64,000 nt of DNA, from the NCBI GenBank assembly GCA_041664365.1, contig JBAYKW010000005.1, positions 29,204 through 93,203 on the forward strand, in the 5' to 3' direction. Of the stretch, positions 8,540 to 45,528 are shown piece after piece. The number at the start of each line of letters is the position of its first letter. Position 1 is the stretch's first letter. This DNA comes from Patescibacteria group bacterium (lineage in GTDB: Bacteria; Patescibacteriota; Patescibacteriia; UM-FILTER-42-10). The notes under the pieces were generated by a model. It made no database searches. It worked only from the letters and a program-made list of their open reading frames with translations, and was not told the origin of the DNA. The position numbers and the translations under genes were made by a program.

Positions 8540-9448
8540 CTATCCTGATATCACTGATAATTTTCCCGGTATCATTTCTATTTCAAATTTTTTCATTAAC
8601 GGTAACAGTTCTCCGTCTAACTGCGCCTGCAGATTATGTCGTGATTCAATTGTAACTTTTTTTGCGGTATATGTGTGAACTTCAGGAAGTTTTAAATGTG
8701 TTCCTTTCATAATTTTTGGAATATTCCTTAAAGCATAAAATCTTCCCATTTTATCAATCTGACATACTGTGAATAAACCATCATCAATTTCTGCCGATGG
8801 CGCCACTCTAAAACCACCGCCATATTGTGTTCCGTTACATGTAGCAACTAATAATATTTTCTTTTCTAGAACAATATCGTTATCCAAAACTATTCTGGCT
8901 TCTCTGAATCTATACGTCACCAGTGTTCTAAGAACTGCTGCTAAATAACCGGGGTAACCAGGAAAGTATTTCAGATACTTTCTGACCCGTGCAGCCGCTT
9001 CACCGTCAAACCCTACGCCCATTCCATTAACAAAAATATATTCCTCGTTAACCTTACCTAAATCAACTTTCCGGATATGGCCGCGAATCAAGGTATCAAG
9101 TGCTTTATGCAGATTTTTTGATATCCCCACCATCGGGGCAAAATCATTGCCGGATCCGGTCGGCAGTATTCCCAGCACCGCGGGTGTATCATAAATCCCA
9201 GCAGCCACTTCACTGATCGTACCGTCACCTCCCACCGCCACTACAACTTCATATTCCTTTGCCGCTTCCCGTGCCAATTTTGTTGCTTCTTTAGGTTCTT
9301 TGGTCAGCACTTTCTCGTATTCCAGATTGTGCTTTCGGCAAAATACCTGCACCTCCGTAATAAATGATAGCTTTTTACCTTTCCCCGCTTCCGGGTTCAC
9401 AATAAAATAGAATTTTTTATACATTTGTTTTTCCGTATAATTTTTCAA
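8540..9448 (-). CDS. Diacylglycerol kinase-family lipid kinase (YegS/DagK-like)
   Basis: VVVAVGGDGTISEV matches the DAGK catalytic GGDGT motif. Confidence 0.8.
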   Translation of the reverse strand: MKNYTEKQMYKKFYFIVNPEAGKGKKLSFITEVQVFCRKHNLEYEKVLTKEPKEATKLAREAAKEYEVVVAVGGDGTISEVAAGIYDTPAVLGILPTGSGNDFAPMVGISKNLHKALDTLIRGHIRKVDLGKVNEEYIFVNGMGVGFDGEAAARVRKYLKYFPGYPGYLAAVLRTLVTYRFREARIVLDNDIVLEKKILLVATCNGTQYGGGFRVAPSAEIDDGLFTVCQIDKMGRFYALRNIPKIMKGTHLKLPEVHTYTAKKVTIESRHNLQAQLDGELLPLMKKFEIEMIPGKLSVISG

Positions 9449-10082: not shown

Positions 10083-10522
10083 GTAATTTGAGTGTATAAA
10101 CCAACAAGTTGCGCTTTTTCCAGTATATGCCCCTTCATTGCCTTTTCTAATTCCTTCTTACCATGCGATTTGTCCAGGTCAATTAATGTATCCAGAGCAT
10201 AAATTTTAAAAAAATACCGATGAGTGCCCGATGGCGGACATGGTCCTCCGTATTTATTATCTCCTCTGGTGTTCTTTCCTTCGACAGCACCTTCCATTAC
10301 ACAATCTTCAGCAATATCAAATGTATTACTATCAATATTCCAAACAACCCAATGGACCCAAGTTGCGCCTGGAGCATCCGGATCATCATTGATTAACGCT
10401 AAACTTTTTGTACTGGGCGGAACTTCACTAATTCTAAGCGGTGGACTGATATTATCCCCGTTGCAGGTATATTTAGACGGGATCATTTCATTATCCAGAA
10501 ATACGGGACTGGTAATTTTCAT
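10079..10522 (-). CDS. YbhB/YbcL-family Raf kinase inhibitor-like protein (PEBP)
   Basis: DPDAPGATWVHWVVWNI, CPPSGTHRYFFKIYALD. Confidence 0.75.
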   Translation of the reverse strand: MKITSPVFLDNEMIPSKYTCNGDNISPPLRISEVPPSTKSLALINDDPDAPGATWVHWVVWNIDSNTFDIAEDCVMEGAVEGKNTRGDNKYGGPCPPSGTHRYFFKIYALDTLIDLDKSHGKKELEKAMKGHILEKAQLVGLYTQIT

Positions 10523-10536
10523 AAATCCCCACCTTT

Positions 10537-11217
10537 CTAAATTACGTCCTTAAGTGTTATATTTTTGTACTGACCTTCTTTCAGGTTTCCCAGTTCCAAT
10601 TTTCCAATGCGTACTCTTTTTAATTTTGTTACACCATAGCCCATCTTTTCACACATTCTCCGAACCTGCCTTTTCTTACCTTCAATAATTACGATAGAAA
10701 ATTTTCTGACATCAGTCTGCTTAATCTTGGCAGGCAATGTTTTATATTTATTAATGTAAACTCCCGTGCTCATCATTTTCAGAAACTTCTCAGAAATATC
10801 CCTGGTTACTTCTACCTGATATTCCTTTTCTACTTTATTCTGGCCTCTTAATATTTTATTTACGACTTCTCCGTCATTGGTCAGTAAAATCAGACCGGAA
10901 CTGATCACATCCAGCCTTCCGATAGTATAGACTCTTTCGGGATACCCTACCGCGTCAATTATATTATCTTTGGCTTTCGGATCACTGGTACAGATTACCC
11001 CGACCGGTTTGTTAAAAGCCAGATAAATCTTTTCCGCGGTATCTGTTTTGACACGCTCTCCGTCAACAACAACGTCATCACCCGGCAATACTTTATCTCC
11101 GAGTTTTGCCTTTCTATTATTAATCTCTACCCTTCCCTGCTCAATCAAACGATCTGCTTCACGACGCGAACAGTAGTTGGCTTGAGTCAGGTATTTATTG
11201 ATTCTTGTTTCTTCCAT
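10537..11217 (-). CDS. Pseudouridine synthase, RsuA/RluB family, with an S4 RNA-binding domain
   Basis: N-terminal S4 domain (RINKYLTQANYCSRREADRLIEQGRV). Catalytic region ...YTIGRLDVISSGLILLTNDGE. Confidence 0.8.
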   Translation of the reverse strand: MEETRINKYLTQANYCSRREADRLIEQGRVEINNRKAKLGDKVLPGDDVVVDGERVKTDTAEKIYLAFNKPVGVICTSDPKAKDNIIDAVGYPERVYTIGRLDVISSGLILLTNDGEVVNKILRGQNKVEKEYQVEVTRDISEKFLKMMSTGVYINKYKTLPAKIKQTDVRKFSIVIIEGKKRQVRRMCEKMGYGVTKLKRVRIGKLELGNLKEGQYKNITLKDVI

Positions 11218-27671: not shown

Positions 27672-28268
27672 ATGCACATACATCGTAACTCACAAAAAAG
27701 ATACTATTCCAGAAATTATGTATATTTTGTGACATTCAATACAGAAAATAGAATACCCTATTTTAACGAAAGAATTTTTTGCGATATCTTCATTGATAAT
27801 TTAATACTTTGTAAGCAACTTAAGCGATTTGAATTATATGCTTTTTGCTTGTTACCAGACCACGTGCACATTCTATTGAAGGCGGGAGCAGTTTATAACA
27901 TATCCAATATCATTCATTTTATAAAAAAGAATGCCAGTTACAATATTAACAAAATTATGATGTATAATCCGTTTGAATTAACCCCCAAAGGCGGGTTTGC
28001 GCAAACCCGCCTTTGCTTTGATAATAAAATGAAATATTATAAAACCGAATTTGAAAAGAAATATGGGTATGATCAAAGTTCAATTCCTCAATTCAAATGG
28101 CAGGGATCATTTCATAACCATATAATTTGTGATGTGAAAGATTTTAATAATCATTTACAGTACACAGCATATAATTTCCATAAACATAAAATACCAGATG
28201 ATTGGCAATACAGTTCCATAAATTATGGATTCATGATTGATGAATCAGATTATAATATCTATAATTAA
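27672..28268 (+). CDS. IS200/IS605-type Y1 (HuH) transposase-like protein, RAYT-like
   Basis: YFVTFNTENRIPYF...LYAFCLLPDHVHILLKAG carries the HuH motif HVH. A Tyr-containing C-terminal region (QYTAYNFHKHK). No companion tnpB. Confidence 0.6.
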   Translation: MHIHRNSQKRYYSRNYVYFVTFNTENRIPYFNERIFCDIFIDNLILCKQLKRFELYAFCLLPDHVHILLKAGAVYNISNIIHFIKKNASYNINKIMMYNPFELTPKGGFAQTRLCFDNKMKYYKTEFEKKYGYDQSSIPQFKWQGSFHNHIICDVKDFNNHLQYTAYNFHKHKIPDDWQYSSINYGFMIDESDYNIYN

Positions 28269-28299
28269 ACGCTTGACTATCTCCATGCATCTGCTAAAA

Positions 28300-31860: not shown

Positions 31861-33693
31861 CTATTTTCCTTTCAATACCGACAGATACACTTTTGAAGGA
31901 ATATCAACTTTGCCGAAAGAACGCATTTTCTTCTTTCCTTTCTTCTGTTTTTCCAGAAGCTTTCTTTTTCTGGTGACATCTCCACCGTACAGCTTCGCCG
32001 TAACGTCTTTTCGGAGCGGTGATATTCTTTCAGAGGCAATGACTTTTCCACCAGCTATGTGAGTACCCTTCTGTTTTTGATATCCCAGCACTCCCTGAAT
32101 CCGGATTTCGATCAGTTGTTTCGGAATAGCATCCTTTAAAGTACTGACTACCCGGCGGGCTGTTACATGCGAGGAATCCTCATAAACAAAGGTTGCCAGT
32201 GCCTCAACCACATCCCCATTTACCACGATATCCAGTCTGCGGATTTTAGCCTCGTGATAACCAAAAAACTCATAATTCATCGAAGCATAACCTTGGGTTA
32301 CGCTTTTTAGTTTATCATAAAAATCAACAATCAGTGAAGTAAGGGGCATTTCAAAATGCAGAATAATCCTTTCCATCTCCAGATACTCAGTAGTTTCATA
32401 TGTCCCCCTTTTAGCTAAAACTAAATCCATTAAAGCACCCTGGTATTTCGCCGGAGTAACCAAATCCACTTTCATCCATGGTTCTTCAATCTGAAGGATT
32501 GTTTCCTCGTCCGGAAAATCTGCCGGACTGGTGATTGTAACTTTTTCATTGCTTTTTAAAGTAACATGATAGGCGACGGATGGGACGGATACGATTATTT
32601 CCAACCCGTATTCTCTGTTCAGTCTCTCTTGAATGATATCTAAATGCAGAATTCCTAAAAACCCGCAGCGGAATCCCAAGCCCAGTCCCGTTGATTTCTC
32701 CGGTACATAATCAAAAGCGGAATCGCTGAGATGCAGTTTTTCTAGTGCCTCCCTTAGTTTTCCGGAATCATCGCCCTCTTTAGGAAAGAAACCCGCATAG
32801 ACCATCGGTTTCACCTCTTTATAGCCCGGCAGCGGCTCCAGGTCCGGTTCATGATCCAGAAGCATGATCGTATCGCCTACCCGGCAGTCCTTGACTGTTT
32901 TAAGTCCGGTGACGACATATCCGATTTCCCCGGCAGAAAGAGATTCTTTGGAATTTAAATCAGGTCTTAGAACCCCGATATCCAGTGTTGCACCTTTTTT
33001 TCCGGTTGCCGGTAAATATATTTCGTCGCCTTTTTTCAGGGTGCCGTCAACAATCCTGATCAATGAAACTACACCCTGATACTCGTCATAGTATGAATCA
33101 AAAATAAGGGCGCGCAGAGAATCCAACTTGCTCTCTGCCGGCTCCGGAATAACTTCGATAATTCTTTTCAAAATTTCCGGAACCCCTACTCCGGTTTTCG
33201 CCGATGCTAGGATTATTTCCGCCGGATCAATACCTAGTAAATGGGATAATTCTTTTGATACTCTGTCAATGTCGGCATTCGGCAAATCTATTTTATTGAT
33301 GATCGGGATAATCGTCAGGTCCTGGTCAATCGCCTGATACAAATTGGCTAGCGTCTGTGCTTCAATCCCCTGCGTCGCATCCACCAAAAGAAGTGCCCCC
33401 TCAACGGCGGATAGTGACCGGGAAACCTCATACCCGAAGTCCACATGACCGGGTGTATCAATCAGATTTAAAATGTATTCTTTCTGATTAAACTGATAAT
33501 CCATCCTAACCGGCTGTAATTTGATGGTGATACCACGCTCCCTTTCCAGATCCATCCGGTCTAAAAGCTGCTCCTTCATTTTCCTCTTTTCCACTGTACC
33601 AGTAAATTCCAAGAGACGGTCAGCTAAAGTAGATTTACCATGGTCAATGTGAGCAATGATACAGAAATTTCTGATATTTGTTTTTTCAGTCAT
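31861..33693 (-). CDS. lepA: Elongation factor 4 (LepA)
   Basis: IRNFCIIAHIDHGKSTLADRLLE. LepA C-terminal domain. Confidence 0.95.
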   Translation of the reverse strand: MTEKTNIRNFCIIAHIDHGKSTLADRLLEFTGTVEKRKMKEQLLDRMDLERERGITIKLQPVRMDYQFNQKEYILNLIDTPGHVDFGYEVSRSLSAVEGALLLVDATQGIEAQTLANLYQAIDQDLTIIPIINKIDLPNADIDRVSKELSHLLGIDPAEIILASAKTGVGVPEILKRIIEVIPEPAESKLDSLRALIFDSYYDEYQGVVSLIRIVDGTLKKGDEIYLPATGKKGATLDIGVLRPDLNSKESLSAGEIGYVVTGLKTVKDCRVGDTIMLLDHEPDLEPLPGYKEVKPMVYAGFFPKEGDDSGKLREALEKLHLSDSAFDYVPEKSTGLGLGFRCGFLGILHLDIIQERLNREYGLEIIVSVPSVAYHVTLKSNEKVTITSPADFPDEETILQIEEPWMKVDLVTPAKYQGALMDLVLAKRGTYETTEYLEMERIILHFEMPLTSLIVDFYDKLKSVTQGYASMNYEFFGYHEAKIRRLDIVVNGDVVEALATFVYEDSSHVTARRVVSTLKDAIPKQLIEIRIQGVLGYQKQKGTHIAGGKVIASERISPLRKDVTAKLYGGDVTRKRKLLEKQKKGKKKMRSFGKVDIPSKVYLSVLKGK

Positions 33694-35300
33694 TATTTGC
33701 GTAAATTAGCGAACTGATTTTTTGCTTTTTGCAAAAACTTTTTAATAATATCAACTTCATCAAAATTAAGCTTCACCGCAAGCAGTACATACACCAGACC
33801 ACCGCCCACCAAACTGCCCGCTGTTTGGACCAGCACACCGAAAAAAGTCTGCATATCAACTAACGGTCCAATTACATACTTAAGTCCTTGAATCATCAAG
33901 CCCATAAGTAAAGATAGCAGTATAATTTTTAAAGTAGAATTAATAATCCGCTGGTCATCCAAGTCCCCTAATCTAGTACGCAGAGCGGCCAATAATAATA
34001 TCATATTAACAAAGCTTGCGATAGAAAAAGCCAAAGCGAGCCCTAAAACACCCATCGGTTGTACAAGCAGTATGGAACCGATGATATTAATAATCATAGA
34101 GATTACGCTGATAATAACCGGAGTTTTGGTGTTTTGAAAAGCATAAAAAGAACGTGCCAGCATCGGTATCAGACTCTGGGCGAACAGTGATAGTGAAAAT
34201 AATCCTAAAGCTTGAGCAGTCAGAATAGTATCATTCCAGTCAAAGTTGCCGGATCCCAACACCAGACGGACTATCTGGGCGCGCAACAGTAGAATTACAA
34301 TACTGGTCGGGATAATAATAAATAGAATTCTTCGAAAAGTCTGTGAAAAATGTAATACAAATTTCGAGGTATTGTTCTCGGTAAATGCCTGGGTAAATAC
34401 CGGAAAAGCGGAAAGCGCCAGCGATACTCCGAATACGCTGATCGGAAAATACTGCAAATTGTTCGCCAGATTGAAAACCGCAACACTCCCGACAACCAAG
34501 GTAGAAGCAATGGAAGTAATGACAACCTGGTTCAGCTGAGTAACACCCAAACCAAATGCGCGCGGTAAAACCAATTTGCCGATTTTTTTGACACCAGGTA
34601 GTGAAAAACTCATCACCATTCTGTATTTAAATCCTGACTTGTAAACTGAAGGAAGCTGAACCAGAAGATGCAGAAAAGCGCCGAGAATTACTCCATAAGC
34701 CAGTCCCATAATCCCGTACTCGGGTACAAAAAAAACGATGCCGAAAATTATTCCCAGATTATACATGATCGGCGCCAACGAATAAGCAACAAATCTTCTG
34801 AAAGAATGCAGTACTCCTGAAACAATATTACTTGCCCCGAAGAAAAGAACGCTGACGTACATAACTCTCACCAATTCTCCGGTTATCCTTCTTTTTTCCG
34901 CATCAAATCCGTATGCGATCAAAGAAACCAGTTGGTCCGTAAACAAGAAAACAAACACACCGATAATCAACAAAATAAGTGTAATTATGTTTAACAGCGA
35001 ATTTGCGATTTTGAAACTCTCAAAACTGGAATTTTTTTGCTCCTTATCCTTATTCCAATATTCGATGAATACGGGAATAAATGCGGACGATAATGCGCCC
35101 AGTACAATTATATTGAAAACGAAGTCCGGAATTTTGAATGCGGCATAATAAATATCCAAAGTTTCACCCGCGCCAAAAGTTGAAGCCAGCATCCTTTCCC
35201 GAAGCAAACCCAAAATACGACTGACAACTTGTGCCAGCCCTATAATAATTGCACCACCCATGATGGTGGTCTGAAATTTCTTGAAATCTTCACTTTTCAT
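33693..35300 (-). CDS. murJ: Lipid II flippase MurJ (MviN)
   Basis: 14-TM MOP-family protein. N-terminus GLLRERMLASTFGAGETLDIYYAAFKIPDF is typical of MurJ. Confidence 0.85.
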   Translation of the reverse strand: MKSEDFKKFQTTIMGGAIIIGLAQVVSRILGLLRERMLASTFGAGETLDIYYAAFKIPDFVFNIIVLGALSSAFIPVFIEYWNKDKEQKNSSFESFKIANSLLNIITLILLIIGVFVFLFTDQLVSLIAYGFDAEKRRITGELVRVMYVSVLFFGASNIVSGVLHSFRRFVAYSLAPIMYNLGIIFGIVFFVPEYGIMGLAYGVILGAFLHLLVQLPSVYKSGFKYRMVMSFSLPGVKKIGKLVLPRAFGLGVTQLNQVVITSIASTLVVGSVAVFNLANNLQYFPISVFGVSLALSAFPVFTQAFTENNTSKFVLHFSQTFRRILFIIIPTSIVILLLRAQIVRLVLGSGNFDWNDTILTAQALGLFSLSLFAQSLIPMLARSFYAFQNTKTPVIISVISMIINIIGSILLVQPMGVLGLALAFSIASFVNMILLLAALRTRLGDLDDQRIINSTLKIILLSLLMGLMIQGLKYVIGPLVDMQTFFGVLVQTAGSLVGGGLVYVLLAVKLNFDEVDIIKKFLQKAKNQFANLRK

Positions 35301-36076
35301 ACGAACATAGTTTATAACATAATATCATGAATTATTCAATTAATAAAGCCACTCCGTATTATTTTTTAGGTTAGGGTTCAGTCCTCCCGAAAACCCTTAA
35401 TTTTGTAATCATTACTTCATCTTATCTCGCACGTTTTCCTGTTCATTTAGTCTAGATTCCGGAATGACACAAGGCTATAAACATGTCTTTCGAGCGAAGC
35501 CGAGAAATTTTTAGACCTCTCCGCTTCTACTTAAGAATCCATTATTAATAAAGTAAAAGTCATAACAAAAATCCGTTCAGTGTTGAACGGACTTATGTTT
35601 CGAAGCAATATTCTGCTGAAATGGGTCATGTAGGTAATACGAGCTTAAGTTTGAAGTATAGGTCTTTAGCAAAACCTATGAGGAGAGAGTTTTTCATTCT
35701 TGAGTTCGATCTATATGTTTAATCCCAAGTTCAGCAGAATAATGCCTCCAAATTATTGCATAATTTATAAGAACGGAATTGGAGCGAATATGTAAAGAGC
35801 AATTAAAATTTTTCGCTCCAAATCCAGACTCACAAACATTTTTAGGGAGAAAGCTGAAGACGAATTGCAGGCCTTCAGTATTGCCAAATCCGCCTCCAAT
35901 TTTCTCCCTGAAATTTGCGTGCTCAGAAATCTGGAGGAGAACCTGTCCCGGATTTGTGATCTCGCTTGGAGATCTACCCGGGACGTGGAACATTCCGTTC
36001 AGGTAATTTCTAGCGTGAGCCAGATATTTCCTGGGATACATTCCTTTGTTCGCCCCTCCATATTTCTAAGCACTTT

Positions 36077-36720
36077 TTGTTAATGTCCCCTTATTCAGCA
36101 AACATTGACATAAGCCAATATTCGCTGGAGAAGGGGTACGAGAGAGCAGTAACGGGGGCTACTGCTCTCTCGCCCGTCGCTGAGCGCCTACTAGGCGCTG
36201 CGACGAATCGCGTGATCGATCGGCATGAGCTGCCGCTTCTTGGGATGGAACTCCCGCCGAATCGGGGGCTTGCTCGCCACCTTGCGGTGCGAACAGCTAC
36301 CACTCGACTTCGGGACATGCACCGGGATGAAGATGTGACCGACGTTACCGCCGGTGTCGTCATCACGGGAAAGCCCGCACGAGACCACCGTGTTGCGGAG
36401 GTCAACGGGTTCGAGCGTGGGCACGACGGTGGCAGCGGGATGATATCCCTCCACCAGCGCTTCTTCCCGAGCCTCGTGGTCCAGGATGCGCGTGAACACT
36501 TCGTGATGGGATGGTTCCTCCCAGCGTGAAGTGTGGTCACCGCCGAACCGGTTCTTGATCCGCTTGACCTTGCCACCGTTGTCCTGCTTGAAGACCTTCT
36601 TCATGATCGCCTGCTCCTTCTTGCGATTGAACGTTATGGTGCGACCGATACGATGCGATTCTATTGTTGTCAGGGCAGAATTGGAGGTGAGTTTCCTGTC
36701 TTGCGACAAGTTACTATTTG
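36077..36720. other. 0.64-kb high-GC block of uncertain coding status inside a 1.9-kb non-coding region
   Basis: About 62% GC versus about 38% in the flanks. The longest frame (36191..36709, minus strand, 172 aa, ...IDHAIRRSA*) has no recognisable fold. All six frames are open, as expected for GC-rich DNA. Confidence 0.3.
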
Positions 36721-37195
36721 CATAAGTTTATGACCTATAAATAGATCTACTTATGCGGGAAACATTCCATCAGGATGCTTCTAGCCGAGGCCAGTAGCGT
36801 CCTGGGATAAGTTTCGTACTCTCTCCTCCAAATCTGCCCTGATAATGAATTTAATGTGCAATCCCTGTGATATTAGTTACAAGGGATTTGGAGGAAAGAG
36901 AGACCTTAGGTTATATTTTTAAAACGGTCTCCTGTCAGCAGGTTTTCAGATCTATGTCTGATCACCCACTCCTCCAAATCTCTTGTTCCAATATGGACAA
37001 AAAAATGGACGGCATTATTCGTTGAAGAGAGTTCTTCCACTAAAACCACCCATAAGTATTGCTAAAGTTATTTCTGATTTCTCTCTCCTCAATTGTCAAA
37101 GAATTTGATTTAACTAACCAGTATATACCCAAATTAAAAATCTGTCAAGACCCGAAGGGCTTAACAGACTATATTTTGGCTAATTACAGATAAAT

Positions 37196-39460
37196 TTACT
37201 CCTGAAAGACGAACCCAATATAGCGGTCTATATTCAAAGTTGTAGTAAAAGAAATCCTTCCCGCTGATATTTCAACCGTACTGTCTTGAGGATATTGCCA
37301 GATTACATCATATTTTTCCGGGAAATTTATGGTTGCGGAAACAACCGAACCTTTCGTCCCCGACTGTTTTTGCATAAATAAACTGTAGGAATCGGACTTG
37401 CTAAATATTCCCTCCGGTTTTACCGTAAAAGGAAGTTTATATGTTGCTGAAACTTGCGATGTCTGCCCGGCTTCCGTACCCACCCAATTACCGAAAACAG
37501 TTTTGTGGAACTCGTTATTGATCCGGGTTTCTGAATTCTCATCAACAATCACCGTCCCCTGCACTTGCTCAAGTAGTTTATCTTCTTCGTATCCCTCGTT
37601 AGGATAGATAAACAACCTCGGATCAACATGACTGAATCCTTCCGCTTCAATCAAAGTACTGCCTTCTGGCACGTACATCCGCATAAAGTCCATATTCTTG
37701 ATACCGGTAATGGAATCACCTTCTTCGCCGGTATGAGTCCTGTTTACCGTCACTTTCGCCTGCACTTCCCCGTTTTCCTGGATCGTAACATTATAATCAA
37801 TTAACTCCTCAATCTCCAGATCCGTTTTACCGCCGGCGATATTTGTATTGATCACACTCAAATAATCCTTCGGCGAATCAATAATCTCCCCCGCCCAGCC
37901 GCGTTCGATGATTGATTGCTGTAGTTCATCGTCGTTAAAATACAGCATCATGTGTTTTTCTTTCAGCAAAGTATTCAAAACTCCCAATATCTGCAGTTGA
38001 TCAATGCGTTCCAGTTCCAATATTTTATTAAAAACTAAAGGGGTTAAATCCGAGATAATTTGTTTCGGTTTATTGGTATCGGAATCTTCCAGTTCGATTT
38101 GCTTGACGACAGTCCGGAAATTTTCCGCGTCCACCGTCACGCCGTAATCCGCGGTCAGATCAATCGGACCGGACAAAGAAAGTAGTGCTTCAATCACATC
38201 CGGGGTCATGGCTATTACCCCGTCAGTAGACGGACCGCCACTCTCTGTAAAAAACCACATCAGCTTTTCCGCTGAGGTCGGAAAATCCGGAAACCAGTTG
38301 GCGTCCTGGAAATACCAGTGCGGATTGACGAGGTGCAATGGTTTTGGCGCGATCACCTGCTCTTTTAACCATCCGTTCAGATCGTATGATCCGCCGCCCG
38401 GAACTTCCAGTTCTTTCATTATACCGTCATTAAAGGTCATCAATGCAAAGCTTCCGATAAATCCTCCAGTCGGACGTAATTCCGCATTGTTTTGAAATAC
38501 AAATAAATATCGCTTCATTGATCCCTGTCCTAATATGGATAACAGTAAATCAGTGAATTGATTGAACTCCTCTAGTCCGGCGCGTAGCGATGGCAGGTTT
38601 TCCTGTACAATTAAAAACTGTTCCCGGTATTCGCTGGGCAGTGATGATATAGAAATTTTCTCCACATTTTCTTCCGCGTTCTTCAGCTCCAAAACCGCCG
38701 GTTTCAGATTACCACTGGCTGAAAGCAGTGCGGTAGTAAAATTAAACGGCTCTTTCGCCTCACCTTCAGCGAGACTGACAAATGGCTCAAATGCTTTCGC
38801 GAGATAATCGCCGGCTGCCGATATTGATTGTCCGGATTTCAGTATGCGTTCGGCAGTAGATACTTCACCACTGGCTACCGGCACTATTTTAACGAGGCCG
38901 GAAACAGTTTCCAGCATCCCTTGGGCATCAACAAAGTTTTGAATTGCCGACATAAACTCCAAAGACGCGTTATTAAAATCTAACTCGGTAAATGATTGAC
39001 CGGCAGTTTGCAGATGATCATATGCCTCCCAGGATTTTCCTAATACACTATCCTTTATCCGGTCCGCCTTATAGTAAGAGGCCAACGCATAAATAGGTAA
39101 AACACACACTGCGGCTATTAATACAAAACCGATCGCTCCCCTGACTTTAGCAGTGGAGAAACTACTGAATGGGTTGTTAAAATCAAACCGGTGCCTTAGT
39201 GTAAAATTGCGTTTTTTCTTTTTCCTTTCTTCCGCGAATGAAAAAACGTCTTTTTCACTTCGATTGAATTGTGCTTTTTCATAAAAATTTAGAAAACCTT
39301 TTCTTGCCTTTTTTGAAAACACATTATCCAGTTTCTCTTTGGCTTCTTCTCTTTCCGAAGCAATTTTTTTCAAATCCAAAACATTGTCCGCCGGAACATC
39401 AAAATCCAGATGACGCTTGAAATTAACGCGGTGTTTTTCTATTTTTTCTTTTGAACCCAT
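37196..39460 (-). CDS. Large membrane-anchored extracytoplasmic protein, hypothetical (first gene of the polysaccharide locus)
   Basis: 754 aa. Lys-rich cytoplasmic N-terminus, one TM helix (GFVLIAAVCVLPIYALASYY), then a large hydrophilic body. No catalytic motif recognised. Confidence 0.5.
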   Translation of the reverse strand: MGSKEKIEKHRVNFKRHLDFDVPADNVLDLKKIASEREEAKEKLDNVFSKKARKGFLNFYEKAQFNRSEKDVFSFAEERKKKKRNFTLRHRFDFNNPFSSFSTAKVRGAIGFVLIAAVCVLPIYALASYYKADRIKDSVLGKSWEAYDHLQTAGQSFTELDFNNASLEFMSAIQNFVDAQGMLETVSGLVKIVPVASGEVSTAERILKSGQSISAAGDYLAKAFEPFVSLAEGEAKEPFNFTTALLSASGNLKPAVLELKNAEENVEKISISSLPSEYREQFLIVQENLPSLRAGLEEFNQFTDLLLSILGQGSMKRYLFVFQNNAELRPTGGFIGSFALMTFNDGIMKELEVPGGGSYDLNGWLKEQVIAPKPLHLVNPHWYFQDANWFPDFPTSAEKLMWFFTESGGPSTDGVIAMTPDVIEALLSLSGPIDLTADYGVTVDAENFRTVVKQIELEDSDTNKPKQIISDLTPLVFNKILELERIDQLQILGVLNTLLKEKHMMLYFNDDELQQSIIERGWAGEIIDSPKDYLSVINTNIAGGKTDLEIEELIDYNVTIQENGEVQAKVTVNRTHTGEEGDSITGIKNMDFMRMYVPEGSTLIEAEGFSHVDPRLFIYPNEGYEEDKLLEQVQGTVIVDENSETRINNEFHKTVFGNWVGTEAGQTSQVSATYKLPFTVKPEGIFSKSDSYSLFMQKQSGTKGSVVSATINFPEKYDVIWQYPQDSTVEISAGRISFTTTLNIDRYIGFVFQE

Positions 39461-45037: not shown

Positions 45038-45528
45038 CCGATATCCAAGCCTATAAGCCGAATTTTGTATTCCGCATAGCGGAACGATGATTATCTATCT
45101 AGCCATGTACCGAAACGCGGCGCGTCTGGTACGTGGTCAAGCGATCAACCCGCCCCCGTTGCATTTATTGCTAAATACCCGGGGACCTATTTAATCTTGC
45201 ACCGGATAGGGTTTTTCATCCCCTTCTGTTGCCAAAAGAGGAAAAGGATTCTTAGGCCCTTACTTTTCACCCTTACCCCACCAATTACGGGGCGGTTTTG
45301 TCTCTGTGACACTATCCCTAGGACTTCCGGACATTAAAAAGTCTATAGAACTCTTCAATCCCCTTTATTCCCGGCCCGAGTTACGAGCTATCCACTTCTC
45401 CTCACACCAATATTTTGAACAGAAAAAATCAATTTATTCATAACATTGGTGTGAGGAGGGTGTTCGGACTTTCCTCCCAGTACATATGCTTTTGCAATGT
45501 TCCGGGCAATCATCCAGCTTAGATAACG
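45038..45528 (-). ncRNA. rnpB: RNase P RNA, bacterial type A (rnpB)
   Basis: Minus-strand transcript contains GGGAGGAAAGUCCGAAC (the P4 5' half) and ACAGAGACAAAACCGCCCCGUAAUUGGUGGGGUAAGGGUGAAA, close to the E. coli M1 segment ...CAAACCGCC...GGUAAGGGUGAAA. It also contains AUACAAAAUUCGGCUUAUAGG, matching ACAGAACCCGGCUUAUCGG (the P4 3' half). A long P3 hairpin is present. P1 pairs UAUCUAAGCU with GGCUUGGAUA. Confidence 0.8.

Follow-up and report, generated by a model that had tools for sequence, protein, structure and literature searches.

A candidate family of large structured RNAs with a passenger open reading frame between the DUF4012 and murJ genes of Patescibacteria

Structured RNAs as large as the one described here are rare in bacteria and mostly of unknown function, and we know of few exceeding ~500 nucleotides (nt) besides ribosomal RNA, RNase P RNA, transfer-messenger RNA (tmRNA) and introns. 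The OLE, GOLLD, ROOL, HEARO/omega and raiA RNAs have each proved biologically or structurally unusual, and OLE works in a membrane-associated ribonucleoprotein (RNP). Recent cryo-electron microscopy work has addressed the OLE, ROOL and GOLLD RNAs (PMC12286853). Here, we describe a locus in a 64,000-nt stretch of the genome of a Patescibacteria group bacterium (assembly GCA_041664365.1, contig JBAYKW010000005.1, positions 29,204 to 93,203 of the forward strand), the whole of which is called the window and supplies the coordinates used below. The interval at 35301-37195, between murJ and a gene encoding a DUF4012 protein, is in our judgement probably, though by no means surely, a new family of large structured RNA, predicted to be transcribed independently as a molecule of ~1.55 kilobases (kb), carrying a passenger open reading frame (ORF) and confined to a clade of Patescibacteria. 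A first-pass annotation of the window, made from its letters and ORFs, had listed a large structured non-coding RNA among three candidate explanations of the interval, and this candidate is strongly supported by the conservation, covarying helices, strand specificity, promoter and terminator described in the following.

No fewer than 10 lineages of Patescibacteria have the unit between the DUF4012 gene and murJ, and none of the searches turned up a known gene; neither outcome that the first-pass annotation had named as refuting was thus seen. In homologous ORF-bearing loci whose contigs hold both flanks, the order is DUF4012, ~0.6 kb, ORF, ~0.9 kb and murJ; on shorter contigs the unit follows DUF4012. 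The loci are collinear throughout, and an inversion was never seen. In a three-way alignment that includes the closest relatives, the non-coding parts (84-91% identity over 37160-36720 and 90-97% over 36160-35565) stand above the coding flanks (72-85%) and the embedded ORF (66-85%), and identity collapses just after 35565. In a more distant locus (L007; loci are cited by such numbers where they need to be told apart), identity is 72-77% in the non-coding parts, on a par with murJ, lepA and DUF4012 (74-77%), and only 56% in the ORF.

The domains on both sides of the ORF are conserved structured RNA, as seen from compensatory changes, stability beyond that of shuffled sequences and strand specificity. 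The minimum free energy (MFE) of the minus strand lies far below that of shuffles, with z-scores of -8.65 for 37115-36600 and -11.24 for 36195-35560, and the plus strand is weaker in energy. RNAalifold, run on seven sequences, gives 123 pairs in the 5' domain and 205 in the 3' domain. In the 5' domain 96.1% of cells are paired and 20 pairs show double changes, against 8.6 ± 1.9 in shuffled alignments; the corresponding values are 97.1% and 33 against 20.1 ± 2.4 for the 3' domain, and 93.6% and 17 against 8.2 ± 1.8 for the 3'-terminal domain H6, aligned from nine sequences of which two are distant. In all three cases none of 500 shuffles was as high, a control that is not to be read as a probability with so few related sequences, and sliding the structure gave at most 6 such pairs. 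The slid controls and the pattern across individual helices, for example 6 of 9 compensated pairs in the P5 hairpin of domain H3 and 9 of 21 in the outer stem of H6, argue for real pairing. The strand is equally marked, as the consensus energies are -113 vs -101 kcal/mol for the 5' domain and -235 vs -183 kcal/mol for the 3' domain on the minus and the opposite strand, respectively, and G-U cells exceed A-C cells by 81 to 13 and 132 to 15, which favours the minus strand. Covariance models of a repeated module (R1) and of H6 (R2) give scores of 92-103 and 134-174 bits for the RNA strand and of at most 27 and 56 bits for the other strand. Within the window, R1 reaches 96.2 bits at 36753-36846 on the minus strand, in domain H2 (20 bits on the plus strand), and 98.9 bits on H3, and R2 reaches 171.9 bits on H6 (54 bits on the plus strand); neither model finds further copies elsewhere in the window.

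The predicted RNA spans ~37113 to ~35565 on the minus strand, a unit of ~1,549 nt made up of a promoter, a 5' structured domain, a 137-amino-acid (aa) ORF, a 3' structured domain of ~630 nt and an intrinsic terminator (Table 1). The sigma-70-type promoter keeps its position in all lineages examined, including those with a DUF4012 identity as low as 42%. Its -35 box sits in the 3' arm of the terminator-like hairpin that ends the upstream operon, and the stem of this hairpin changes compensatorily between lineages. At the other end, the predicted terminator is the only good one found, coincides with the sharp drop in conservation and shows compensatory changes in its stem in other lineages. Beyond it, a promoter-like element, TTGAAT...TATAAA, lies directly upstream of murJ at 35339-35310. 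At ~35375-35400 (minus strand), a block reading GGGUUUUC(G/U)GGAG(G/A)(A/G)CUGA(A/C)CC is kept across lineages within the diverged spacer; it might form a small hairpin or bind a protein.

The molecule contains at least six helix domains, H1-H6, most of them closed by a variant of the helix AUUUGGAG(G)/(C)CUCCAAAU, the sequence of which equals a Shine-Dalgarno (SD)/anti-SD duplex (GGAGG/CCUCC). The helices measure 55-175 nt and most have branches; each has orthologues in the other lineages and is not a repeat of its neighbours. H2 and H3 are paralogous copies of one module, and one degenerate pattern of this module matches only these two domains in the window (0.00 matches expected). The closing stem of H1 is invariant, and seven double-change pairs fall in its inner helices. 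The GC-rich hairpin just 3' of the ORF is kept in the L014 lineage despite the deletion of the 3' end of the ORF, and in the ORF-less L027 a hairpin stands at the equivalent site; the hairpin that follows, invariant in the close clade, is found with base changes in the distant L026 and L027. The leader element has equivalents in L023, L027 and L034 in the form of a canonical hairpin followed by a U-run; a leader peptide was rejected because a 1-nt indel between lineages disrupts the frame. The purine box of the leader (GAGGAGAGAG) and the pyrimidine box of H6 (CUCUCUCCUC) are both conserved as far as L034; they are complementary and probably pair with each other, closing the molecule.

Table 1. 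Predicted features of the interval between the DUF4012 gene and murJ, in the 5' to 3' order of the minus strand.
Feature	Position	Strand	Description
Terminator-like hairpin and U-run	37142-37167	minus	CTGTTAAGCCCTTCGGGTCTTGACAG then ATTTTT; ends the upstream DUF4012/polysaccharide operon
Sigma-70-type promoter	37120-37148	minus	TTGACA-17 nt-TATACT; 11 of 12 consensus matches; predicted start ~37113
5' leader	36998-37113	minus	purine box and attenuator-like stem with U7; helices 2 and 3
Purine box	37081-37091	minus	UGAGGAGAGAG; invariant; in 5' leader
Leader stem	37053-37046 with 37012-37005	minus	followed by U7 (to 36999); resembles an attenuator
Helix domain H1	36879-36986	minus	closed by ACAAGAGAUUUGGAGG/CCUCCAAAUCCCUUGU; inner UAGAUC hairpin; helices 5-7
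Helix domain H2 (module copy 1)	36670-36842	minus	closed by CAGGGCAGAUUUGGAGGAGAGAG/CUCACCUCCAAUUCUGCCCUG; long irregular hairpin and two more hairpins (helices 9-14)
SD and 137-aa ORF	36191-36619	minus	SD AAGGAG within 36619-36605; ATG at 36604; stop at 36193-36191
GC-rich hairpin just 3' of ORF stop	36139-36173	minus	first helix of 3' domain; 4 double-change pairs
Hairpin	36094-36128	minus	CCAGCGAAUAUUGGC-UUAU-GUCAAUGUUUGCUGAA; helix 3; invariant in close clade; 14 never-varying pairs, 3 of them G-U
Helix domain H3 (module copy 2)	35919-36073	minus	helices 4-9; strongly covarying P5 hairpin with UAGAUC; helix 8 with double changes in 6 of 9 pairs
Helix domain H4	35839-35913	minus	helices 10-11; homologue in L026 and L027
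Helix domain H5	35774-35827	minus	GGAUUUGGAGCGAA/UUCGCUCCAAUUCC; helix 12; 5 double-change pairs; first hairpin of the first-pass annotation
3'-terminal domain H6	35598-35752	minus	invariant unpaired pyrimidine box; double-change pairs; covariance model R2
Pyrimidine box	35679-35689	minus	CUCUCUCCUCA; invariant, unpaired; in H6; complementary to 5' purine box
Intrinsic terminator	35564-35594	minus	11-bp stem, 4-nt loop, UUUUUGUU; helix 17; predicted RNA 3' end
Spacer between terminator and murJ	35301-35563	minus	outside the RNA; poorly conserved apart from a short hairpin-like block and a murJ promoter-like element

The first-pass annotation had presented the interval as the longest non-coding stretch of the window and as free of ORFs. 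The interval does contain the two longest runs of sequence in the window that lack an ORF of at least 120 aa (35301-36076, 776 nt, and 36710-37195, 486 nt; the third longest is the RNase P RNA gene), but it also holds the conserved 137-aa gene. The inverted repeats it had listed are present, and the motif CTCCAAAT, which it had noticed to recur, is confined to the region, as all five sites of its minus-strand reading ATTTGGAGS in the 64 kb, where 1.66 are expected, fall within 35745-36979. Strong hairpins exist as described, yet calling them GC-rich does not hold for the domains outside the GC block, which reach only 0.41-0.43 GC. Two of the proposed pairings differ from those that covariation supports, namely CAAATCCG...CGGATTTG and the third hairpin of the annotation, CTCTCCTCCAAATC...GATTTGGAGGAAAGAGAG, in which the 3' arm of H1 would pair with the 5' arm of H2; both compete with the supported helices H1, H2 and H3-P5. 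As the shared closing sequences let neighbouring arms swap, both pairings may still be alternative conformers. A gene-caller ORF of 115 aa within the 3' domain (35694-36041, minus strand) was rejected, as its frame is not conserved and it overlaps covarying helices. The counterpart in L032 (9444-9722, 92 aa) shares its start, the frame diverging after ~20 codons, and the other lineages have no call; both calls are almost certainly spurious annotations. The hexamer TAGATC is scarce in the window, with 14 sites where 28 are expected, and five of the 14 fall in the 1.6-kb RNA, where loops or stems of hairpins in H1, H2, H3 and H6 hold most of them.

The central block of high GC content pointed out by the first-pass annotation is real, with 0.60-0.64 across 36100-36600 vs 0.42 for the whole window, and it is a protein-coding gene by its frame, SD and start, codon-position periodicity and synonymous changes. 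Frame and stop are kept in seven lineages, where the indels of 3 nt and 126 nt are multiples of three, and the SD lies 6-9 nt upstream of the start in all seven. Invariant protein motifs, such as VVSCG and PPIRREF, differ synonymously in their codons. GC at the three codon positions is 0.64/0.43/0.77, and third-position GC ranges over 0.77-0.86 in the ORF vs 0.41-0.44 in murJ, lepA and the DUF4012 gene; the ratio of non-synonymous to synonymous substitution rates is mostly 0.5-0.7 (range 0.2-0.7, one pair 1.04). The ORF is foreign in composition and evolves much faster than the surrounding RNA. The NCBI annotation of its product reads 'MAG: hypothetical protein WCW66_04220 [Patescibacteria group bacterium]', and homologues occur in seven lineages, all of them Patescibacteria. 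A word-indexed search returned two at 64-66% identity, and an exhaustive HMMER search of 1.84 billion representatives returned three more at ~40%; among its seven matches, five are true family members with E-values of 1e-14 to 1e-75, and two (P0007 and P0008) were rejected as repeat-driven false positives. A seventh family member was read from locus L032. Sequence searches against Pfam, PHROGs, NCBIfam and PDB gave no match, and an AlphaFold2 model from a six-sequence alignment is too poor for use (predicted local distance difference test score 56.8, predicted template-modelling score 0.15). The 172-aa minus-strand ORF reported in the first-pass annotation is an upstream TTG extension of the same gene and has, as was stated there, no known domain. 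The annotation had also considered a degraded gene; with frame, SD and stop all conserved and no known family matched, a degraded known gene is excluded. The block was also tried as a part of the structured RNA and rejected, as its MFE z-score is only -2.34 and its consensus fold of -39 kcal/mol over 435 columns has an unfavourable covariation term and many broken pairs.

Distant members of the family were found by scanning metagenomes with the module pattern and by looking up DUF4012 homologues; a scan of species-representative genomes with the invariant hairpin returned two species, both named 'Patescibacteria group bacterium' and both belonging to lineages already known. The L014 lineage (DUF4012 79% identical) has the complete RNA and an ORF that has lost its 3' third. 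L027 (59%) retains the promoter, leader, H1, the hairpin with base changes, an H3-like domain, H4, H5 and H6 and has no credible ORF; its contig stops just after H6. In L023 (57%), the promoter, H1 and H2 are followed by an unrelated ORF of ~62 aa, apparently a membrane peptide, and in L026, where DUF4012 lies beyond the stretch examined, the hairpin, H3 and H4-H6 are present and an unrelated 163-aa ORF with a signal-peptide-like N-terminus comes after H3. L034 (45%) is reduced to ~930 nt with the promoter, a GGGGAGAGAG box, the leader hairpin, GGAGG/CCUCC helices, the H6 core and the terminator, and has no ORF. Model R2, whose training set does not contain L034, detects this H6 core with 45 bits (E-value 4e-9); the H6 of L027 belongs to the R2 training alignment, and its score is not independent. 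Finally, L030/L031 (42%) share the promoter and one GGAGG/CCUCC helix, have no alignable RNA and encode two small membrane-protein-like ORFs. The comparison implies that the RNA would be the ancestral, constant component, and the ORFs lineage-specific insertions that always fall between helix domains.

Several other observations concern the assemblies of these loci. Contigs end within or beside the RNA locus unusually often and at varied positions (L003, L005/L020, L012, L015, L016, L018, L019, L021, L028 and L029), which suggests strain-level heterogeneity or recombination rather than a single repeat. L002 and L004 show 100% identity over the 3' RNA domain and onwards through murJ (window ~36100 to 33693 and beyond), against just 62-93% over the ORF, the 5' domain and DUF4012; either a recombination breakpoint lies at the ORF or one of the assemblies is chimeric. 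In L030, a direct repeat of ~130 nt (TTCTTCGACTAAATCTCGAGCGAAGTCGAGAGGTGCATGGAGAAG...) at ~8890-9020 and ~10425-10550 flanks the small ORFs between DUF4012 and murJ and looks like a miniature mobile element or a cassette boundary.

No described RNA family accounts for the element. With Rfam 15 gathering thresholds, cmscan of the whole window finds only RNase P RNA and three tRNAs, all outside the interval, and the scan returned none of the families that the first-pass annotation had proposed to look for (GOLLD, ROOL, OLE, HEARO and group I and II introns), nor raiA. A permissive scan of 35100-37400 with E-values up to 10 yields only sub-threshold chance matches of at most 26 bits, and Rfam scans of the distant homologues L023, L026 and L027 give nothing within the element. 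The annotation had seen no group II domain V and no tmRNA or signal recognition particle (SRP) RNA motifs, and in agreement with this the window scans contain no group II match, ARAGORN finds no gene in 35000-37500, and Rfam has no match for tmRNA, SRP RNA or 6S RNA. Phage and plasmid collections searched with DNA and protein queries returned 0 matches, as did viral contigs scanned with two patterns, and a full-text search of the published literature found no description of such an RNA. A group II intron was also rejected on the grounds that the ORF has no reverse transcriptase (RT) or other Pfam domain and that the unit has its own promoter and terminator between intact genes, and a group I intron on the grounds that no Rfam model matches, no exon halves flank the unit, and murJ and the DUF4012 gene are complete. 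An integron array was rejected for the lack of a recombinase among the genes called within ~6 kb on each side in eight loci and for helix ends of the form (A/G)AUUUGGAG(G/C) and (G/C)CUCCAA(A/U)U, which are not RYYYAAC/GTTRRRY.

The surrounding genes all lie on the minus strand: lepA (31861-33693), murJ (33693-35300), whose product matches Pfam MurJ with an E-value of 8.7e-97 and occurs on one public contig (ena:ERZ27249449:k141_487972, 180 kb), the DUF4012 gene (37196-39460), which is the last gene of a glycosyltransferase/Wzz locus, and then GT4 glycosyltransferases. In eight loci, the genes called within ~6 kb on each side encode glycosyltransferases, Wzz, DUF4012, MurJ, LepA, bPH, DivIC and SurA-like proteins, and in the loci read no integrase, recombinase or RT is among the genes called within ~6 kb on each side of the ORF or the DUF4012 gene. 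Genes related to insertion sequences (IS) occur near the locus in two places, namely a Y1 (IS200/IS605-type) transposase ~5.4 kb past murJ (window ~27690-28270; L001 13033-13608) and an rve_3 integrase-core fragment that stands in place of the murJ side in L014 (7205-7417). The RNase P RNA of the window (45038-45525, minus strand; bacterial class A, 163.5 bits) is 488 nt long vs a model of 367 positions, implying sizeable insertions, and L027 has an RNase P RNA at 423-927, in the same place upstream of the polysaccharide locus.

While the biochemical role of the RNA is a matter for analogy, some expectations can be formulated. Genomes of these bacteria are typically ~1 megabase (Mb) in size, so an RNA of 1.55 kb is a large investment, and together with its conservation above that of the housekeeping neighbours this implies an important function. 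Most likely, the folded RNA itself would carry this function, as a stable structural or RNP RNA comparable to OLE, ROOL and GOLLD, and the fixed gene neighbourhood suggests a link to the cell envelope. The 137-aa ORF is probably a horizontally acquired passenger that was inserted where H2 and the 3' domain are joined by a linker tolerant of such additions, and it would be translated from its own SD and use the strong promoter of the RNA. A more far-reaching proposal, towards which we lean slightly less than we lean away, is that the locus could be the founding example of a new class of ornate RNAs of 0.9-1.6 kb specific to the candidate phyla radiation (CPR). Such an RNA would be a structural or RNP molecule of tandem domains, closed by its terminal boxes and built on an SD/anti-SD-like closing helix, and would at the same time provide a landing pad and expression platform for foreign small ORFs (soluble, membrane and secreted) between its helices. 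To our knowledge, a large non-coding RNA with exchangeable coding cargo has not been described in bacteria.

Several points weigh against interpreting the locus as an independent RNA with a passenger. The transcript, its ends and its abundance are predictions from the sequence. The alignments hold few independent lineages (~6-9), and several key helices, among them the GGAGG/CCUCC closing stems and the pairing of the 5' and 3' boxes, are invariant and thus not probed by covariation; an 11-nt complement within 1.9 kb also arises by chance about half the time. The ORF-less loci are single short Logan contigs that could be incomplete or misassembled. In three unrelated cases the ORF directly follows a module copy, which fits cis-regulation at least as well as hitch-hiking, and a role in the envelope or in an RNP is argued purely from gene neighbourhood and analogy.

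The last but one of these points leads to a rival that we regard as unlikely, though well ahead of the others, in which the unit is a structured mRNA or dual-function RNA and its folded 5' and 3' regions control the translation, stability or localisation of the embedded ORF. In each module, an SD-like GGAGG and an anti-SD-like CCUCC form the closing helix; as the helix opens or closes, its CCUCC strand would be freed or occupied, and this strand could mask the SD of the ORF, following the logic of a riboswitch, a thermosensor or a protein-controlled switch. The ends may fold back on each other as in hok-type mRNAs, or the whole may resemble RNAIII of Staphylococcus aureus. This would explain why the three unrelated ORFs (in the window, L023 and L026) each lie 35-70 nt downstream of a module copy, why the closing helices are always GGAGG/CCUCC, why the terminator-like hairpin of the leader, with a competing GGAGAGAG box upstream, resembles an attenuator, and why the lineage with 42% DUF4012 identity uses the same promoter for small membrane ORFs. 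However, L027 and L034 retain ~0.9-1.5 kb of conserved structure without a credible ORF, and H3-H6 (~480 nt) come after the ORF of the window, with only the terminator beyond them. The RNA flanks are also far more conserved than the ORF, the kinds of ORF differ between lineages, and no known riboswitch or leader family of Rfam was matched.

Very improbable, by comparison, is a giant cis-acting leader of murJ (and lepA), which would gate expression of the lipid II flippase if transcription from the promoter at 37148 read through the terminator under some conditions. The terminator could be conditional, but it is a strong and conserved hairpin with a U-run; strand and order agree with murJ wherever the downstream flank is on the contig, yet L014 has an IS fragment after an intact RNA instead of murJ. 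Although the spacer contains its short conserved block, it is otherwise poorly conserved and ends in a conserved promoter-like element of murJ's own, and a leader of 1.5 kb would lack precedent. Least credible of all is a feature acting at the DNA level, be it a relic of a mobile element or of an intron, an array of cassettes resembling an integron or shufflon-like invertible repeats that vary expression near the surface-polysaccharide locus. A decayed mobile element or intron remnant was the second candidate of the first-pass annotation, and it is not supported: no transposase, integrase or RT was found, repeats are absent from the rest of the window, the phage, plasmid and viral searches gave no match, and the synteny is stable; nor does any group I or II intron model match. 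A strong promoter followed by conserved hairpins, with variable ORFs of foreign composition in between, does recall a cassette array, but the hairpins are orthologous, individually distinct and multi-branched, unlike attC-like sites, which are short and similar to one another. The many conserved G-U pairs of these hairpins and their strong strand asymmetry are those of RNA. The short sequence GATTTGGAGG occurs many times in both orientations, many metagenome contigs break in the region, and L002 and L004 match completely to one side of the ORF and differ to the opposite side, all of which speaks for a DNA-level feature; against this, the loci are collinear with no inversion seen, no other copies exist in the window, and no integrase, recombinase or RT is called within ~6 kb, the nearest candidates being the Y1 transposase and the rve_3 fragment mentioned above.

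The locus makes testable whether a large non-coding RNA can scaffold the acceptance and expression of exchangeable foreign ORFs. It also offers structural biology a new, well-delimited target with many confidently predicted helices, and the finding corrects the annotation of the spurious 115-aa ORF in the 3' domain.

Compared with described systems, the locus shares individual traits with several. As in group I and II introns and in the HEARO/omega RNAs found beside IscB/TnpB, a conserved RNA fold tolerates a peripheral protein-coding insertion, and the ORF differs in composition and evolves faster than the RNA. In contrast to these, the locus matches none of their models and has no domain V, RT, maturase, homing endonuclease or nuclease ORF; no host gene is interrupted, no sign of mobility is seen, and the unit has its own promoter and terminator. 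With integron cassette arrays it has in common a strong upstream promoter and variable ORFs of foreign composition between conserved hairpins. The differences here are the missing integrase, hairpins that are large, branched, orthologous, individually distinct and without attC core sites, RNA-type G-U pairs with a strand bias, and lineages without any cassette. S. aureus RNAIII (RF00503), which encodes delta-haemolysin, likewise combines a small ORF with extensive conserved stem-loops on both sides in one transcript, a transcript that is predicted in the present case, and also has pyrimidine-rich anti-SD-like elements. Yet the RNA described here is three times larger, is not matched by the RNAIII model, holds its anti-SD-like CCUCC in stems rather than loops, and carries an ORF that is optional and interchangeable between lineages. 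The closest resemblance is to OLE (RF01071), GOLLD (RF01998) and ROOL (RF03087), which are also large, multi-domain RNAs, independently transcribed (here by prediction), with many conserved covarying helices, no known function, a narrow phylogenetic range and a constant neighbourhood, consisting here of envelope genes. None of their models matches the locus in sequence or structure, and we know of no ORFs between the helices of those families. The RNA of the window stands apart from them in being 2-2.5 times longer than OLE and ROOL, in its tandem helix domains that share one closing helix, in its host phylum Patescibacteria and in the lineage-variable coding ORFs placed between its helices.

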